64,000 nt of DNA from a bacterium (GTDB lineage: Bacteria; DUMJ01). Shown piece by piece: positions 55,932 to 64,000 of the stretch. The stretch's first letter is position 1. Every line of letters begins with the position of its first letter. The notes beneath the pieces were generated by a model, which saw nothing but the letters and a program-made list of their open reading frames with translations, ran no database searches and was not told where the DNA came from. A program made the position numbers and the translations under genes. Location: the NCBI GenBank assembly GCA_049970495.1, contig JBMFMV010000002.1, forward strand, positions 24,976-88,975. The letters are read 5' to 3'.

Positions 55932-56982
55932 TTCTAGACACGCCAGCTTCTTCAAAGGTCTTCATATTATAGTATGCACTAAGAGCACAATCTATAACAA
56001 GCATCCCAATAGCAGAACCAGTGCCCTCTCCTAATCTCATATCTAGCATAAGTAGTGGTTTAAGGCCCATAAGGTCTAATGCAACTTTGTGTCCAGGTTC
56101 TTTAGAAAGATGTGAAGGTATAATATAGGGTAATACATTAGGAGTTATCTTATACGCTAATAAAGCCCCTACTGTAGAAATAAACCCATCTATTATGACA
56201 GGCTTACCTAGACTGGCACATCCAATAACCAATCCTGCTATAGCGCCAATCTCCAGTCCTCCAACTTTAGATAAGACATCTATCGGATCATTAGGGTCAG
56301 GTTTATTAAACTCTATAGCTCTTGATATAATATCTATCTTCTTTTTTATCCTTTCTTGGTCTAGCCCTGTCCCCGGTCCCACTAATAGCTCCAAAGGGGT
56401 TGAAGAGGAAAATACACTCAATATGGCAGAGCTTGGAGTAGTATTACCTATTCCCATCTCACCAGTTCCCAATATATCAAAACCCAAAGCGTTCAGCTCT
56501 TCTACTACTTTTATTCCTACCTCTATAGATTTTATAGCTGACTCTCTACTCATACTAGGACCTTTAGAAAAATCCTCGGAGCCCCTAAGGACATTGTAAT
56601 CTCTAAAAAAGGGATGGGAAGTTTCAATCTTCTTAGCAACCCCTACATCTACTACAAACACATTGGCATTGGATTTAAAAGCAATTGCATTTATCCCTGC
56701 TCCACCGGATAAAAAGTTATATACCATCTGTACAGTTACTTCTTGGGGATATGCACTTACACCACTTTTTGCTACTCCATGGTCTCCAGCCATAACAACA
56801 ATATACCTATTATCTATCTTTGGTCTATCAGTTCTCATTATCCCTGCTAGTTGAACTACAATCTCTTCCAGTCTACCCAAACTCCTAGGGGGCTTGGTAA
56901 GGTTATCCCATCTTTCCCAAGCCCTATTCTGAGAGTCTTTATCTAAGGGTCTTATATTAGATATTGCTTCGCTTAGATTCAT
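55924..56982 (-). CDS. cobT: Nicotinate-nucleotide-dimethylbenzimidazole phosphoribosyltransferase
   Basis: LTKPPRSLGRLE, GDHGV, GEMGIGNTT, MRLGEGTG. Confidence 0.97.
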   Translation of the reverse strand: MNLSEAISNIRPLDKDSQNRAWERWDNLTKPPRSLGRLEEIVVQLAGIMRTDRPKIDNRYIVVMAGDHGVAKSGVSAYPQEVTVQMVYNFLSGGAGINAIAFKSNANVFVVDVGVAKKIETSHPFFRDYNVLRGSEDFSKGPSMSRESAIKSIEVGIKVVEELNALGFDILGTGEMGIGNTTPSSAILSVFSSSTPLELLVGPGTGLDQERIKKKIDIISRAIEFNKPDPNDPIDVLSKVGGLEIGAIAGLVIGCASLGKPVIIDGFISTVGALLAYKITPNVLPYIIPSHLSKEPGHKVALDLMGLKPLLMLDMRLGEGTGSAIGMLVIDCALSAYYNMKTFEEAGVSRNV

Positions 56983-57484
56983 TCTTTACCTCCAAAGGGA
57001 TTCCTGCTATCATAAAGAATATCTTATTAGAATACTTGGCAAAGGTTTGGTTTACCCTACCAAGCAGGTCTCTATACCTCCTACCAAGCGGATACTCCGG
57101 AACAATTCCAAGACCAACCTCATTAGAGATTGCGATAACCTCTGCTTTAATATCCCTAGAGTATATGGCAATATCTTCAGACATCTTCAGTAACTCTTCG
57201 TCTGTACATATCTCTAGAAGATTTGAAACCCACATAGTGAGGCAGTCTAAGATTATAATATCAACATCGACAATACTCTTTATTGCTGAGAGCAAGTTGA
57301 TTGGTTCTTCAACTGTCTTCCAATGTGAAGGTCTCTCCTCTTTATGATGTCTTATGCGCTCATCCATCTCCTTATCTAAAGGTAAGGCAGTAGCTATAAA
57401 GGCTACCTCCTTACCTTTAGCTAAACTTAATGCAAAATTACTCTTACCGCTTCTAGCTCCACCAAGTATAAAAGTTAAACTCAT
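56957..57484 (-). CDS. cobU: Adenosylcobinamide kinase/guanylyltransferase
   Basis: GGARSGKS, DCLTMW, NEVGLG. Confidence 0.96.
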   Translation of the reverse strand: MSLTFILGGARSGKSNFALSLAKGKEVAFIATALPLDKEMDERIRHHKEERPSHWKTVEEPINLLSAIKSIVDVDIIILDCLTMWVSNLLEICTDEELLKMSEDIAIYSRDIKAEVIAISNEVGLGIVPEYPLGRRYRDLLGRVNQTFAKYSNKIFFMIAGIPLEVKNESKRSNI

Positions 57485-58377
57485 CTAAAAGCTTCCGGAT
57501 GAAGATATTTTGCTATAATCTCAAGGGCTAAGACTAACCTTGGTCCAGCCCTAAATATTATGTCATCATTTATTGTATATACTCTTTGATTCTTTACCGC
57601 TTTTAGGGTATCCCAGCCTGGTCTTTTAGCAATTTCTAAAGGATTAGCACCCATACTGGATTCTGCCCCTATAATTACATCGGGGTCTTCCTTTATAAGC
57701 TGTTCTAGACTAAAGATTGGATAAGCAGACTTTGCAGTTCCAGCAATATTTATTCCTCCTGCCTTCTTTATAATATCATCTATAAAGCTTCCAGGTCCTG
57801 CACTCATCAGTGGCTCATGCCAGAGTTCAAAAAAGACTTTAGGTTTTGTCTTTACTTTACTTACCTTACTTGTAACCTTTGCAATTCTTAGTTTCAAGTC
57901 AAAAGCTAATCTCTTAGCATTTTCTTCTGCACCAGTGATGCGTCCTATGGTATAGATTCCCTTTATTACCTCATCTATATTATGTGGATAAAAGACATAT
58001 ACAGGTATACCAAGCTGTTCAAGTTTTTCTATGACCTGTCTTTGGACCCCACCTGTAGCTACTATAAGGTCAGGTTTTAGAGAGAGAATCTTTTCTATAT
58101 TCGGATTAGCGAAATCTCCAATCTTCTCTTTAGTCTTTGCCCCCTCTGGATAATTACACCATGTAGTTACACCTACAACCTTATCTCCTAAATTTAGTGC
58201 AAAGAGTATCTCTGTTACATCTGGGGCGGTAGATATAATTCTCTTTGGCTCCTTGGAAATAGTTATCTTACGCCCTACATCATCTTTAATCGTTATAGGG
58301 AAACTACTAGCAAAAGAGAGGTTAGTTATAAGTATAAAGGATAGTATTATACTTAAAAAATATATAAACCTTTTCAT
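57481..58377 (-). CDS. btuF: Cobalamin-binding protein BtuF
   Basis: KRIISTAP, VVGVTTWCNYP, NIEKILSLKPD, RAGPR; downstream of the B12 riboswitch. Confidence 0.9.
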   Translation of the reverse strand: MKRFIYFLSIILSFILITNLSFASSFPITIKDDVGRKITISKEPKRIISTAPDVTEILFALNLGDKVVGVTTWCNYPEGAKTKEKIGDFANPNIEKILSLKPDLIVATGGVQRQVIEKLEQLGIPVYVFYPHNIDEVIKGIYTIGRITGAEENAKRLAFDLKLRIAKVTSKVSKVKTKPKVFFELWHEPLMSAGPGSFIDDIIKKAGGINIAGTAKSAYPIFSLEQLIKEDPDVIIGAESSMGANPLEIAKRPGWDTLKAVKNQRVYTINDDIIFRAGPRLVLALEIIAKYLHPEAFR

Positions 58378-58676: not shown

Positions 58677-58697
58677 ACTATGCGTCCTTTTTAAGCT

Positions 58698-58726
58698 ATG
58701 ATACTACAATAACAAAATCGAATCAA
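58698..58726 (-). promoter_or_regulatory. Promoter of the riboswitch-btuF-cob operon
   Basis: Minus TTGATT-17-TATCAT. Confidence 0.6.
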
Positions 58727-58797
58727 GAGACTATATTTAAACAGCCTTGTATAATCTCTACAATTGCATCATACCTCTCAATTCGAAAGTCTTTCAT
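58723..58797 (-). CDS. 24-aa small ORF or truncated gene start
   Basis: AGGAGGAAAG-ATG MKDFRIERYDAIVEIIQGCLNIVS*; TATAAT at 58841-58846 (minus). Confidence 0.35.
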   Translation of the reverse strand: MKDFRIERYDAIVEIIQGCLNIVS

Positions 58798-58953
58798 CTT
58801 TCCTCCTAATAGTTTATCCTAAAGTGAGTTTATTTTTCATATTATACCAAAACGTTCCTTATAGTTACTCACTTTTTGATAGCCCCCCATATAACTTGAT
58901 ATATCTCCAATTCAGTGGTATTATCATAAAAAATATAGGGAGGGATTCAAGCC

Positions 58954-59472
58954 ATGAAGATAGATGGAAGTATTTTTTGGGGGATATTATTGGTAATCAT
59001 TGGAATATTAGTTATCTTAAAATATAGTCTTCACATTAATATCTCAATTTTTAGAATAATTTTGGCTGTAATACTTATCTATCTTGGGATTTCATTAATA
59101 TTTGGGCAGTTTAGAGTACAGAGTGGTTCTAATGTCATATTCAGTGAGAGGACTATTAAGCCTGAGACATTAGAAGAAGAGTACAATATAGTATTTGGTA
59201 GAGGCTATATAGATCTTACTGGTATTTCTCCTAGTGAATTAAATAAGTCTATAAAGATAGCTACGGTATTTGCTAATACTACATTAAAAATTGACCCTAA
59301 TATGCCTATAGAGATAGATATAGATTGTGCATTTGGGAGTACTATAACACCTGATGGAGTTAGTATCTCTTTTGGTGATCGAACCTATAGGACTCCTAGT
59401 GTAGGAAGCAATCAGTCATACCTAAAGATTAAGGCAGATACTGTGTTCGGAGTATTAGAAATAATTCAGTGA
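58954..59472 (+). CDS. LiaF-like membrane protein
   Basis: N-terminal TMs IFWGILLVIIG; beta-rich C-domain YNIVFGRGYIDL. Confidence 0.7.
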   Translation: MKIDGSIFWGILLVIIGILVILKYSLHINISIFRIILAVILIYLGISLIFGQFRVQSGSNVIFSERTIKPETLEEEYNIVFGRGYIDLTGISPSELNKSIKIATVFANTTLKIDPNMPIEIDIDCAFGSTITPDGVSISFGDRTYRTPSVGSNQSYLKIKADTVFGVLEIIQ

Positions 59473-61139
59473 GGTTGAATTCTAGAGGCTTTTTATATAT
59501 CTGGATTATAGTCAGTATTGTAATAGTTTTTATGTATCTCTTTGGAGGATTCGATAGAATAAATTACTCTATTCTAAATTATCTCTACCATCTTTCAAGT
59601 AAAGCAGAATTCTCAGAAGATATAGTGGTTATTGGTATAACGGATGAGTGTCTAGGAAAACTTGGTAGATGGCCCTGGAAGAGAAATTATTTTGTAAGAT
59701 TACTTGAGATATTAAAAGAGGAAAAAGTAAGGGCTGTAGGTGTAGATATACTCTTTGTAGAACCGGAAGGCACAGTCGATGACCAGTTGGCAGCTATCTC
59801 TAAAGGACTAAAAAGAGTAGTATATTCGGCGTATTATAACACAGAGGATGCCAGACTATATCTTCCCATTTCTAAACTTACTAAGAGTTCTTATGGGGTG
59901 GGACATATAAATGTAACACCAGAGATAAATGGATTTATCTACAGTCTCCCTGAAAGTTTACCTTATGGGGATGAAAAGATAAAGGCCTTTAGTATTAGAG
60001 TAACTGAAGCCTATCTAGATAGAACTATTAATAATCTACCCACTGAAAATGGAAATCTACTTATAAATTACACAGGTAAAAGGCCTAAGATAATACCTTT
60101 TGTTAATGTTCTAGAAAGAAAGGTTCCTAGGGAATTTTTTAAAAATAAACTGGTTTTAATAGGAATAACTGCTAAAGGGCTAGGAGATTATTTCTTGGCT
60201 CCATCATACAAAGAGCCTATTTCTGGGATAGAGATTCATGCAAATGCAGTAAATACGATAACTAAAGGGGTATTTCCTAAAAGAGTTTCAAAGACGATTG
60301 TTATAGTAATTACTCTAATAGTCACATTATCTTTCTTCCTTATGAAGGAAAAGCCTTTAAGAGTCCTCTCTATAGGTCTATTAATAATCCTTATTTCTTT
60401 CGCTAATAGCTACATAATCTTTTCAACTAAAAGAATAATATTTGATTGTTTTCCTATAATTCTTTCAACTATATCAGATGTTAGTATGACTACTCTGTAT
60501 GGATACTTCAAAGAGAAAAAAGAGAAGGATAGAATAAGGAGCATATTCCAGATGTATCTACCGCCTGAGGTTATAGAGAAACATTTAAACAATTCTGAGT
60601 TATGGAATTTAGAAGGAGAAGAGGTGGAAGTTACAGTGATGTTCATTGATATAAGCGGGTTTACTAAATTCTCTCAGGAACATAAACCTCAAGAGGTAGT
60701 AAAATTTTTGAATAGGTATTTTTCTATCGTAACAGACATCATCTTTAGGCATAGAGGAACATTAGATAAATTCATAGGTGATGGAGTAATGGTTATTTAC
60801 GGTGCTCCTATAAGATATAATGAGCATCCATTAGAAGCCTTATTATCTGCCTTTGAAATCATGGAAGCGGCTAAAAGATATGAGATATCTCTTAAAATAG
60901 GTATAAATACTGGAAATGTTATACTAGGAAATATAGGAACAGAGAAGCGGATTCAGTATACCGCTATAGGAGATACGGTAAATATGGCAGAGTATTTAGA
61001 ATCTATAGCAAATCCAGGGGAGATTATTATAGGAGAGACAACTTATAATAGGATTATAGGTACAATTAATACAGAAAGGATAGTATTAACTGGAAAGTAC
61101 GAAGGAAGGATTGCCTATAGGGTAATAGGGCATGGATAG
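59469..61139 (+). CDS. CHASE2-domain class III nucleotidyl cyclase
   Basis: CHASE2 IVVIGITD..LGRWPWKR, GIEIHANA; 3 TM; FIDISGFT, DKFIGDG, YTAIGDTVN. Confidence 0.93.
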   Translation: MRLNSRGFLYIWIIVSIVIVFMYLFGGFDRINYSILNYLYHLSSKAEFSEDIVVIGITDECLGKLGRWPWKRNYFVRLLEILKEEKVRAVGVDILFVEPEGTVDDQLAAISKGLKRVVYSAYYNTEDARLYLPISKLTKSSYGVGHINVTPEINGFIYSLPESLPYGDEKIKAFSIRVTEAYLDRTINNLPTENGNLLINYTGKRPKIIPFVNVLERKVPREFFKNKLVLIGITAKGLGDYFLAPSYKEPISGIEIHANAVNTITKGVFPKRVSKTIVIVITLIVTLSFFLMKEKPLRVLSIGLLIILISFANSYIIFSTKRIIFDCFPIILSTISDVSMTTLYGYFKEKKEKDRIRSIFQMYLPPEVIEKHLNNSELWNLEGEEVEVTVMFIDISGFTKFSQEHKPQEVVKFLNRYFSIVTDIIFRHRGTLDKFIGDGVMVIYGAPIRYNEHPLEALLSAFEIMEAAKRYEISLKIGINTGNVILGNIGTEKRIQYTAIGDTVNMAEYLESIANPGEIIIGETTYNRIIGTINTERIVLTGKYEGRIAYRVIGHG

Positions 61140-61812
61140 ACTAAACCTTTTAAAAAATATTCCTATCTTTTCTAGATTAGATAAAGAGTCATTAAAAAGG
61201 ATAGATTCCATCTCTATAGAGAAATACTACAAAAAGGGAGATATCATAATCCTACAAGATTCAACGGTAGAAGGGCTCTATATCATAAGAGAAGGTAGAG
61301 TCAAGATAAGTAGGATATCTGAGGACGGAAAGATAAAGGTATTAGCTATTCTATCATCAGGGGATATCATGGGAGAGATGTCTATATTGGACGAAGAATC
61401 AGCATCAGCTACGGCAGAAGCTATTGAAAATTCTATATTAATATTTATAAATAGAGAGGGCTTTCGGTCCATTCTAGTTAGATACCCTATAATAACTCTT
61501 AGTATAGCACAGATATTAGCTAAAAGGCTTAGACTAGCGGACAGAGAGATTGAGGAGCTCGCCTTTTATAGTGTAAAGTCTAGAGTCATTAAGATGTTAA
61601 TAGAGCTAGCAAGTAAATATGGTGAAAAGACTGACTTTGGCATAAAGATTTCTCTTAAACTTACCCACCAAGAACTAGCAGATATGTTGGGTACATCTAG
61701 AGAGACGGTTTCAAGGATAATGAGTGCCCTTGAAAAGAGACAATTAATTGTTAACGAAAAGGGTTATATTATTATAAAAGATATCGACACTCTAGAGGAT
61801 TACATCTTTTAA
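61132..61812 (+). CDS. Crp/Fnr family regulator (CRP-type recognition helix)
   Basis: cNMP domain GEMSIL; HTH LTHQELADMLGTSRETVSR. Confidence 0.95.
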   Translation: MDRLNLLKNIPIFSRLDKESLKRIDSISIEKYYKKGDIIILQDSTVEGLYIIREGRVKISRISEDGKIKVLAILSSGDIMGEMSILDEESASATAEAIENSILIFINREGFRSILVRYPIITLSIAQILAKRLRLADREIEELAFYSVKSRVIKMLIELASKYGEKTDFGIKISLKLTHQELADMLGTSRETVSRIMSALEKRQLIVNEKGYIIIKDIDTLEDYIF

Positions 61813-62450
61813 CGTTCAAAGGGATGGTTAGATTCGTCTTCTTTAGCTGATCCCTTATTCCCCGAACCGTGAGAAGAACTTTTACCTTTTTCAATATCAT
61901 CTTTTGATACCCCTTTATTCATAGTAGGAGGAGACTTCGGTCTTACTACACCAGACTCTCCTTTCTTTAGTCTGATTGTCTTTCCTTGAGCGGTCACATC
62001 AACTTCTCCCTCGTATACTGTAACAATAGTGGTTTGATCTATCAAGACCTCTACACTAAACTCAGTCCCTCTAACACCAGCTACTGCCGAAGGTGTTCTT
62101 ACCTCAAAATTAGGAAAGAGCTTAGTTATATATAATCTTATGTATCCGATAGCTAGAGAAAGATAATCTTTATATATCGATAGATCTGTGTTTTCACTTA
62201 CCTTAACTATACTCCCATCAGAGAATTTTAACTCCGCATAACTATTTTCTTTTGTTCTAAGAGAATCTCCATCATCCAATATATCTCCTTTACTTACGGG
62301 GACCCAAATATTCTGATAGTTATCTTTCTTTAACACCATCCCTTCTGCCTTAGTAACAGTAGCTCTATATGGAGATACTATGTTTACTGTACTGCCTATA
62401 ATGATAAAACTCAGTATTATTATCAAAGATATCTTGGTTATCTTTTTCAT
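61809..62450 (-). CDS. Exported FecR-domain protein
   Basis: N-terminal hydrophobic segment, GDSLRT..AELKFSDGS, VRTPSAVAGVRGTEF, VYEGEV. Confidence 0.88.
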   Translation of the reverse strand: MKKITKISLIIILSFIIIGSTVNIVSPYRATVTKAEGMVLKKDNYQNIWVPVSKGDILDDGDSLRTKENSYAELKFSDGSIVKVSENTDLSIYKDYLSLAIGYIRLYITKLFPNFEVRTPSAVAGVRGTEFSVEVLIDQTTIVTVYEGEVDVTAQGKTIRLKKGESGVVRPKSPPTMNKGVSKDDIEKGKSSSHGSGNKGSAKEDESNHPFER

Positions 62451-62504: not shown

Positions 62505-63041
62505 TTACTTCCTTCCGCCACTGGAGCCATGTCCTTCTTGGATATGCTGTTGTGTTTGCTGTTGGATATGTAATTGAACTTGCTGATTCTCTTGCTGATT
62601 CTGTTGATGTATTTGCTGTTGTGTCTCTTGTTGAATCTGTCCTTTATCGGAATCTTTATTCATTTCATGACGGAGATAACTTATTCCGGCAGACTCTCCT
62701 CTATCTTTCTGATTCAGAACTAACCCTAACTTAGAAAGTTTGACCCCAAAGTGATTAGCAACTTCACCCCAGCCCAAGTTATTCTCCTTTGCATAGTTTA
62801 TCACATCAGTTAGAGATGTACCGCTCTGGCTTGCTATTAAGCACATTATTGCTATCTCTCCGTAACCATACCCCTGAGCTCGTAACTCATTAATCATCTC
62901 TTCTGTGAGGAGATTACTGAATACTGAGAGCAGAGTATCCACCATCTTTCTACTTTCCAATCCAGTCTCCTCATCTGCCAGTGCCAATACAGGCAATAGA
63001 AGAATACTAACCACTAAAATGCCTACTACTAATTTTTTCAT
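62505..63041 (-). CDS. Secreted protein with GYGYGEIA/GWGEVA motifs and Gln/His-rich tail
   Basis: SD AGGAGGTG before ATG 63041; signal peptide ending ALA. Confidence 0.8.
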   Translation of the reverse strand: MKKLVVGILVVSILLLPVLALADEETGLESRKMVDTLLSVFSNLLTEEMINELRAQGYGYGEIAIMCLIASQSGTSLTDVINYAKENNLGWGEVANHFGVKLSKLGLVLNQKDRGESAGISYLRHEMNKDSDKGQIQQETQQQIHQQNQQENQQVQLHIQQQTQQHIQEGHGSSGGRK

Positions 63042-63081
63042 TTTAACATCACCTCCTAAATTTTCCAGTCTTTCCACTAAG

Positions 63082-63124
63082 ATTATACCCCCAAGTAATA
63101 TGCCTGTATGTGACGTATATCACA
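63082..63124 (-). promoter_or_regulatory. Class II CRP-dependent promoter
   Basis: TGTGA-CGTATA-TCACA at 63109-63124; TATAAT on the minus strand at 63087-63082; no -35 consensus; site centre about -41.5. Confidence 0.85.
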
Positions 63125-63143
63125 ATGTGATAATATATATTCT

Positions 63144-64000
63144 ATGGATAAGATTATAAGGACTTACGGTAATCTAATAAGAAGGAATCTTCATAAACCT
63201 GAACTAGTTAAACGCTTAGTAAGATTGGGCTTAGAGGTAGGAAAGATCTGGGTAGACCATGTAGGAGATAAGAACACGCCAAAATCACTAAGGTATCTGA
63301 ATAGTATCTGTTTTCAGTTTATCCTAGAACCTTTGAGAAATCCAGAGAATAGTGGATTTGTAAATCTCTTTGCTCCAACCGAAATCCTTCATGCAATGGA
63401 TATATATCCCCTATTTATAGAGGCATACTCTTCATTTGTATCTGGCTTTTACTGCGAGGATACATTTATAGATAAGGCATCAGTAGAAGGTATATCTGAT
63501 ACTCTCTGTAGTTATCACAAGACATTCCTAGGTGCGTTAGAATTATCTGTCTTACCAAGGCTTAAATTTGCAGTCACCTCTTCTATCCTCTGTGACGGTA
63601 ATTCTAATACATTCAAGTATATTGCTAATAAGTATAAGATTCCATATTTTATAATAGATGTTCCCTATAATTACAACGACGAAGCGGTAAGGTATGTTGT
63701 TAGTCAGCTAAAAGAGATGATATCTATAGTAGAGTCTGCAGTTAGAAAGAGATTAGATATAGATAGACTTAGAGAAGTGATTCGTCTAGAAAATGAGACA
63801 AGGAGATACTTAAAGAGATATATAGAAACTCTTAAGAGCCATACAATGCCTAACTCCATTACCCTAGAGATGTATAAGTTATTTGTTACCCATCCTTATA
63901 TTGGAAGGGAAGAACCACTTGAGTTCTTTAGACTCCTAGCAGAAGATGTTAAACAGTACCCAAAAGATGGCTATAGAATATTTTGGGTACAAATTCTACC
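63144..64000 (+). CDS. 2-hydroxyacyl-CoA dehydratase subunit (HgdA/B-like), partial
   Basis: Open frame to the window end: NLFAPTEILHAMDI, DTLCSYHK, ILCDGN, FIIDVP; missing from the ORF track. Confidence 0.88.
   Translation, partial: MDKIIRTYGNLIRRNLHKPELVKRLVRLGLEVGKIWVDHVGDKNTPKSLRYLNSICFQFILEPLRNPENSGFVNLFAPTEILHAMDIYPLFIEAYSSFVSGFYCEDTFIDKASVEGISDTLCSYHKTFLGALELSVLPRLKFAVTSSILCDGNSNTFKYIANKYKIPYFIIDVPYNYNDEAVRYVVSQLKEMISIVESAVRKRLDIDRLREVIRLENETRRYLKRYIETLKSHTMPNSITLEMYKLFVTHPYIGREEPLEFFRLLAEDVKQYPKDGYRIFWVQIL

Follow-up and report, generated by a model that had tools for sequence, protein, structure and literature searches.

The stretch of DNA analysed here, which we call the window, covers 64,000 nucleotides of contig JBMFMV010000002.1 from the bacterial assembly GCA_049970495.1, and all positions below are counted from its first letter. 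Near its end lies a small signalling module. A membrane-bound sensor cyclase with a CHASE2 domain is followed by a regulator of the CRP/FNR family, and on the opposite strand a two-gene operon for a putatively secreted protein and a FecR-domain protein is preceded by a perfect CRP-type palindrome. Textbooks regard the transition-state arginine of class III cyclases and the arginine in the phosphate-binding cassette of CRP as indispensable. In this module a tyrosine stands in place of the first and an alanine in place of the second. Despite these losses the lineage has persisted without the cyclase arginine through the history of its phylum, and without the CRP arginine through the history of its genus, with purifying selection throughout.

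The phylum of the window genome is represented by only seven species genomes from one family and two genera, here called g1 and g2, and all seven were examined. The window genome (G000; 1.99 Mb, 95.5% complete) falls in g1 with G001, G003, G004 and G005, while G002 (97% complete) is of the same genus as the window and G006 belongs to g2. The five g1 genomes just named, G006 and the metagenome contig L039 each carry an orthologous cyclase-CRP pair in which the stop and start codons overlap. A metagenome scan for further pairs of the g2 type returned L039 as the single close locus, and it is of the g1 type. For the cyclase we used two comparison sets. Set A holds 101 other cyclases, drawn from the genomes of relatives and from 80 metagenome loci, and set B holds the best 120 cluster representatives of a large protein collection, divided into 104 non-orthologues and 16 orthologues (catalytic domain at least 60% identical). 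The regulator was compared with 22 representatives of at least 60% identity, none of which is a CRP from g2, and with 98 more distant CRP/FNR homologues.

The cyclase gene (59469..61139, plus strand) encodes 556 amino acids, and the protein scores 153.3 bits against CHASE2 and 95.9 bits against Guanylate_cyc (PF00211), where the cut-off is 21.9. Pfam places CHASE2 at residues 17-282 and the catalytic domain at residues 387-529, with a membrane and linker part between them. Orthologues are 48-72% identical, and the catalytic domain of the window protein matches the solved cyclases 2w01, 3r5g and 1wc1 with E-values from 2.7e-30 (2w01) to 5.9e-21. When aligned to these three structures with HMMER, Tyr509, which sits within GDTVNMAEYLES and is encoded by TAT at 60993..60995 (plus strand), falls on the arginine of the N-x3-R motif. 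This agrees with the original prediction, made from the letters of the window alone. The same alignments bear out its further claim that the enzyme keeps both metal-binding aspartates (D394 in FIDISGFT and D438 in IGDGVM), the lysine of DKFIGD (K434) and the threonine (T498). K434 and T498 make up the substrate-specifying pair, and a lysine with a threonine is the usual adenine-specifying pair of class III cyclases. Also retained are the transition-state asparagine, N505, and the lysine of the L-x-G-K motif, K543, which we take to be the gamma-phosphate lysine. Across 14 aligned orthologues there is no variation at D394, K434, D438, T498, N505 or K543. Five of the six canonical catalytic residues are present, the transition-state arginine being the one that is not, and because Tyr or Phe replaces it we file the protein as a homologue and not as a canonical active cyclase.

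How unusual is this replacement? Position 509 is Tyr or Phe in all seven orthologous loci and in all 16 orthologous clusters (Tyr in 15, Phe in one). It is Arg in 99 of the 101 cyclases of set A, with His in one of the remaining two and Gln in the other, and in every one of the 104 non-orthologous representatives of set B. The change is rare, and a literature search at the level of titles and abstracts, which is not proof of absence, found no class III cyclase in which Tyr or Phe occupies the place of the arginine. Two basic residues of the cyclase are specific to the clade and common to both genera, R/K449 (60813-60815) and K476 (60894-60896), and these are candidates for a stand-in for the lost arginine.

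The regulator (226 amino acids, 61132..61812, plus strand) has cNMP_binding and HTH_Crp_2 domains and profile scores of 86.9 bits for PF00027, 75.8 bits for PF13545 and 39.9 bits for PF00325. Its start overlaps the stop of the cyclase by 8 nucleotides (ATGGATAG), and both open reading frames are intact in the window, as had been claimed. In six of six orthologous loci the CRP gene adjoins the CHASE2 cyclase, again with an overlap of stop and start. The E. coli protein contacts cyclic AMP (cAMP) through E72, L73, R82, S83, V86, S62, T127 and S128 (excerpts of PMC11253593). In the window protein the phosphate-binding cassette GEMSILDEESASAT (61372..61413, plus strand) retains its Gly, Glu and Ser, and the predicted replacement of the arginine by alanine holds: Ala91 (codon GCA, 61402-61404, plus strand) aligns with R82 of E. 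coli K-12 CRP and with the corresponding arginine in the T. thermophilus protein (4ev0). E72, S83 and R123 have their counterparts in E82, S92 and R132, and A84 is likewise kept. At the positions of T127 and S128 the protein has Ala and Asp, the same as the T. thermophilus CRP of entry 4ev0, which is presumably cAMP-dependent. The score against the NCBIfam CRP equivalog NF008732 is 102.6 bits, well short of the cut-off of 266.

The cassette reads ASAT in 22 of the 22 representatives of at least 60% identity. Taken by itself the loss of the CRP arginine is unremarkable, because the family varies at this position: the more distant homologues have Arg in 54 cases and another residue in 44. Two CRP-family clusters from outside the lineage, P0027 (KTASAT) and P0055 (KTASAN), which are 40-43% identical, also have Ala here, and this looks like an independent occurrence.

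The original prediction had allowed for a compensating basic residue, and on this point the two proteins differ. In the cyclase, positions 449 and 476 stay candidates. In the CRP, a sequence-level comparison of 21 members of the ASAT clade with 54 Arg-bearing homologues revealed no g1-specific basic residue in the cyclic-nucleotide-binding domain that could replace the arginine. K69 is the sole clade-specific basic residue of the CRP, and we rejected it as a compensator; since genus g2 keeps the arginine and has K69 too, this lysine is not tied to the loss.

The DNA-binding part of the regulator is conventional. Its recognition helix, RETVSR (61699..61716, plus strand), matches RETVGR of E. 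coli CRP in alignment A5, and R181, E182, T183 and R186 (numbered with the initial Met included) are invariant there. In E. coli CRP it is the residues RETVGR that read TGTGA. E. coli mutations that free CRP from cAMP map to hinge and D-helix positions 140, 141 and 144 (PMC6603298), where the clade has Lys or Arg, one of Ser, Ala, Asn and Thr, and Ile, respectively. As a mark of cAMP independence these residues were rejected, because g2 and 4ev0 (Arg and Asn at 140 and 141) are alike in this respect.

The two losses had been described as matched, and this description does not survive the comparison of orthologous pairs. The cyclase change is found in both genera and the CRP change is confined to g1. 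In G006 the Tyr-cyclase adjoins a CRP with a canonical PRSAT cassette, and all four CRP clusters of the g2 lineage, which are 71-100% identical to each other, read [RK]PRSAT; in contrast, the CRP of every g1 locus has ASAT. Because the sister genus combines a Tyr-cyclase with an Arg-CRP, the losses were sequential. The cyclase arginine was lost before g1 and g2 split, in the ancestor of the phylum, and the CRP arginine was lost later and in g1 only. The Tyr-cyclase is the only class III cyclase in g2 (G006 has one PF00211 match), so the canonical CRP of that genus has no other class III cyclase to read. The state of g2 argues that the Tyr-cyclase may still feed a cyclic-nucleotide receptor.

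Neither change is private to this strain. Both are lineage-wide, and neither codon can be turned into an Arg codon by fewer than two substitutions, a claim of the original prediction that we confirmed by hand against the genetic code. Within the cyclase, conservation between orthologues is highest in the catalytic domain (59-85% identity, against 47-76% for CHASE2 and 25-66% for the membrane and linker part). The ratio of nonsynonymous to synonymous substitution rates (dN/dS) of the catalytic domain is 0.05-0.17 where computable, although synonymous changes are saturated and the values are rough. For the nucleotide-binding domain of the CRP within g1 the identity is 61-82% and dN/dS is 0.06-0.19. 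Both proteins are under purifying selection, without sign of relaxation.

One irregularity was seen in the cyclase of G004 (L005, G004:C16, about 1500-1525), where an in-frame TGA lies some 10 codons past the probable initiation codon. A sequencing error could explain it, translation could begin further on, or decay could be setting in.

What does the regulator control? The palindrome TGTGACGTATATCACA at 63109..63124, which has the form TGTGA-N6-TCACA, is the only perfect copy in the 1.99-Mb genome. A single occurrence means little by itself, because about 2.3 are expected from base composition. The palindrome is, however, perfect at the same place in all seven orthologous loci, with Ala- and Arg-CRPs alike, and in G002, which has no CRP, the remaining palindrome carries one mismatch. 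The window has a -10 hexamer TATAAT (63082..63087, minus strand) 21 nucleotides past the palindrome. TATAAT or TATACT follows in seven of seven loci, at a spacing of 21 nucleotides in six of them and 22 in G006. If the hexamer is taken to span -12 to -7, a hand calculation from this spacer puts the centre of the palindrome at -41.5, and an activator site centred at -41.5 is the class II geometry. Because both the target site and the promoter layout are conserved in all seven loci, the Ala91 CRP is probably still a constrained, site-specific regulator. Its target promoter is about 1.3 kb from its own gene, and no second CRP box with up to two mismatches was found upstream of the cyclase operon (58688-58953).

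The first gene of the operon (62505..63041, minus strand) encodes a protein of 178 amino acids with a signal-peptide-like N-terminus, MKKLVVGILVVSILLLP, judged by eye. The ATG at 63041 behind GGAGGTGAT is a likelier start than the GTG at 63077 given by the open-reading-frame lister. The protein has no Pfam match, and no match at 0.9 or above in the atlas. The second gene (61809..62450, minus strand) encodes a protein of 213 amino acids with a hydrophobic N-terminus and a FecR domain (Pfam FecR, 57.7 bits). This gene converges on the CRP gene and keeps its place downstream of it in six of six orthologous loci. In the window the two genes overlap by 4 nucleotides at their stop codons (61809-61812), and this overlap leaves no room for a terminator between them.

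On the other side of the palindrome a homologue of the 2-hydroxyglutaryl-CoA dehydratase D-component (HGD-D, 135.3 bits) occupies 63144-63998 on the plus strand and runs past the end of the window. Since its ATG is only 20 nucleotides from the CRP box, the box overlaps the promoter that serves this gene, and the CRP might repress HGD-D while activating the divergent operon.

The module is strictly one-to-one in gene content. Each of G000, G001, G003, G005 and G006 has exactly one match to PF00211 and one to PF00027, both at this locus, and G002 has neither. In G002 (L009, G002:C133, about 2560-2600) the cyclase reading frame ends with a TAA after the membrane part, at 359 amino acids, and the promoter region joins directly. 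The catalytic domain and the genes for the CRP, the FecR-domain protein and the secreted protein are gone together and the flanks are fused, which points to a single deletion. No class IV (CYTH) cyclase was matched in G000, where the search did not extend to classes I and II.

Modules of this kind are already known. The S. meliloti locus cyaD1 (SMc02176)-clr (SMc02175)-smc02177-smc02178 encodes a CHASE2 cyclase, a Crp-family protein, a FecR-domain protein and a periplasmic protein whose promoter bears a Clr box (excerpts of PMC5498481). The window has the same gene set, including a signal-peptide protein, a candidate counterpart of SMc02178, behind the palindromic box of the regulator. According to the same excerpts, cAMP is the product of the S. 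meliloti cyclases, Clr depends on it to bind DNA at a TGTT-N8-AACA box, and the genome has some 28 cyclases and an extensive Clr regulon, as against one cyclase and one receptor in the window module. Unlike its S. meliloti counterpart, the window module has a TGTGA-N6-TCACA box, Tyr for the catalytic arginine and Ala for the cassette arginine. The novelty lies in this pair of substitutions and in how far the system has shrunk, to a single cyclase, a single receptor and a single perfect site.

With the canonical homodimeric Lys/Thr class III cyclases (such as 3r5g CyaB, 1wc1 CyaC and 2w01 Cya2) the window enzyme shares the fold family, the metal-binding aspartates, the Lys, Thr and Asn, and the lysine of L-x-G-K. 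Its clade differs from them in having Tyr or Phe for Arg, Gln for the Glu after F-T-x-x-S, and Gln for the Asp two residues before the Thr. The regulator resembles the CRPs of E. coli and T. thermophilus (4ev0) in domain order, in its RETV-x-R helix, in its TGTGA-N6-TCACA site and in its class II geometry, and it is unlike them in the alanine at the R82 equivalent and in scoring below the cut-off of NF008732.

Natural precedents for relaxed requirements exist in both families. Ma1120 of Mycobacterium avium is a class III cyclase that is active with Ala164 in place of the transition-state Asn (excerpts of PMC4215837). It lacks the Asn but keeps the Arg, as far as those excerpts go, whereas the window cyclase keeps the Asn and lacks the Arg. 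Ma1120 thus sets a precedent for tolerance within the Asn-Arg pair. Among regulators, DdrI (Deinococcus) and SdrP (Thermus) are CRP-family activators that bind TGTGA-N6-TCACA without cAMP. DdrI, however, keeps the arginine and has its pocket filled by Tyr113-Arg55-Glu65 (both points from excerpts of PMC11253593), whereas the pocket of the window CRP otherwise looks canonical and its gene is coupled to a cyclase.

As far as its sequence goes, the module is a working, non-canonical variant of a known one. The explanation that we favour has the following parts. A CHASE2 membrane sensor fused to a class III cyclase would be translationally coupled to a CRP-type activator, and the one perfect genomic target of that activator would be the class II promoter that drives the secreted protein and the FecR-domain protein. 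The cyclase would bind Mg-ATP and make a 3',5'-cyclic nucleotide at low turnover, most likely cAMP given the Lys/Thr specificity pair. In the sister genus this product would be read by the canonical PRSAT CRP. In the genus of the window, the Ala91 CRP would remain a sequence-specific class II activator with a strongly weakened response to the cyclic phosphate, acting either as a low-sensitivity activator that responds at high local concentration or as a largely ligand-independent one. To this combination of a slow cyclase with a weakened or effector-independent CRP we would give about an even chance. Residual activity is likelier than a dead enzyme, because g2 keeps PRSAT beside its Tyr-cyclase and the other catalytic residues are invariant. 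Much weaker nucleotide binding by the g1 CRP is to be expected, since the guanidinium of the arginine is lost and no g1-specific basic residue takes its place.

Several points weigh against this explanation. The genomes show which residues were replaced and in what order, how well the module is conserved, that its gene content is one-to-one and that its promoter is kept, whereas enzyme activity, product and ligand dependence are what we infer from this. The transition-state arginine is reportedly essential for catalysis in a mammalian cyclase (Yan et al. 1997), and by analogy the enzyme could be nearly dead. The hydroxyl of the tyrosine is not a catalytic substitute, because Phe stands at this position in one sub-lineage. 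In addition, the clade as a whole has Gln403 (60675-60677), where 91 of the 101 cyclases of set A have Glu, and Gln496 (60954-60956), where 73 of them have Asp and 18 have Glu. Together E403Q and D496Q point to a possible broader remodelling of the active site. A slow cyclase joined to a less sensitive receptor is also an odd combination for signalling. Retention of the arginine in g2 is known from one genome with DNA context and from three protein clusters without context. Finally, the window genome encodes three GAF_2 proteins, which could be further receptors.

In the first alternative, which we consider unlikely, the cyclase domain would be a pseudo-enzyme, an ATP-binding or merely dimerising output domain that makes no messenger, and the CRP would be effector-free, its activity set by the level of coupled expression. 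The absence of the transition-state arginine from every orthologue and of the CRP arginine from all 22 close representatives agrees with this, and effector-free CRP relatives with the same DNA consensus are documented (excerpts of PMC11253593). The clade residues at positions 140, 141 and 144, where the cAMP-independent E. coli mutations arise (PMC6603298), could be counted in its favour; they are not diagnostic, however, being shared by the CRPs of g2 and 4ev0. It is harder to reconcile with the catalytic domain, which is the best conserved part of the protein and shows no change in its gamma-phosphate lysine or its five remaining catalytic residues; had catalysis been lost, these would be expected to decay. 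Furthermore, g2 keeps PRSAT down to 71% identity with the Tyr-cyclase as its only class III cyclase.

A changed messenger is improbable. In this case the remodelled site (R509Y/F, E403Q and D496Q) would make a product other than cAMP, and the alanine pocket of g1 would have adapted to this product or to some other small molecule. Three clade-specific changes do fall on residues that other cyclases conserve. In the CRP, the Gly-Glu and Ser-Ala-Thr segments of the cassette and the Arg123 equivalent are intact, which suggests that the pocket may still be used, and the CRP/FNR family is known for many ligands, with 44 of the 98 distant homologues lacking the arginine. That said, Lys434 and Thr498 are the usual adenine-specifying pair, in g2 the same cyclase stands beside a canonical cassette for a cyclic phosphate, and no sequence feature indicates any particular other product. 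The order of the losses allows a version of this idea in two steps, an exit from cAMP chemistry in which a new product or a new transition-state strategy came first and the g1 CRP pocket then gave up its hold on the cyclic phosphate to read that product or a different ligand, with the DNA site and promoter kept. We hold that version to be equally doubtful.

Direct signalling between the proteins, with the cyclase-like domain contacting the CRP and no diffusible messenger, is very unlikely. The 8-nucleotide overlap in six of six loci and the joint presence or absence of the two genes across genomes are its sole support, but an enzyme and the receptor that reads its product would be expected to show this context just as much. 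Neighbouring cyclase and CRP genes with the canonical Arg in both partners exist at three of the other loci examined (L018, L023 and L059), and no conserved surface was identified. A complex prediction for cyclase residues 375-556 (a 14-row alignment) with the CRP (alignment A4, 21 sequences with 18 rows reported) scored 0.00 against a mark of 0.32; controls were not run, and the result is evidence neither way.

Decay or artefact, that is, sequencing errors or neutral drift in outgoing genes, might be suggested by the absence of the module from G002 and by the in-frame TGA near the N-terminus of the G004 cyclase, but it is already largely refuted and deserves next to no credence, because independently assembled genomes and metagenomes show the same residues (in 16 cyclase and 22 CRP clusters), a single substitution from an Arg codon would not produce either of them, conservation is strong throughout and the target site is perfectly kept.

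As a system the module is minimal, having a single cyclase, a single receptor and a single perfect target promoter, and a natural intermediate exists in the sister genus, whose cyclase has Tyr while its CRP still has Arg. This comparative set bears on how much catalysis is left without the arginine, on nucleotide sensing without the CRP arginine, and on the role of CHASE2/FecR-domain modules. On the last point, the signal and the role of both extracytoplasmic proteins are given as unknown even in S. meliloti (excerpts of PMC5498481). Should the enzyme turn out to be no more than slow and the CRP no more than constitutive, the result would be a modest note on the tolerance of both families.

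Two further features lie upstream of the cyclase. A gene for a LiaF-like membrane protein (58954..59472, plus strand) overlaps the GTG start of the cyclase by 4 nucleotides at its 3' end. Its assignment is weak: the Pfam hits LiaF-TM and LiaF-like_C do not reach the cut-off, and NCBIfam LiaF_C_term scores 25.3 bits. A LiaF-like homologue stands upstream of the cyclase in L005, L006 and L009, and not in L004, L007 and L008. Beyond it, on the minus strand, a cobalamin riboswitch (RF00174, 58513-58687, 118.1 bits) is located upstream of a Peripla_BP_2 gene (57481-58377, minus strand), which is followed by an open reading frame (56957-57484) that we presume to be cobinamide kinase-like.

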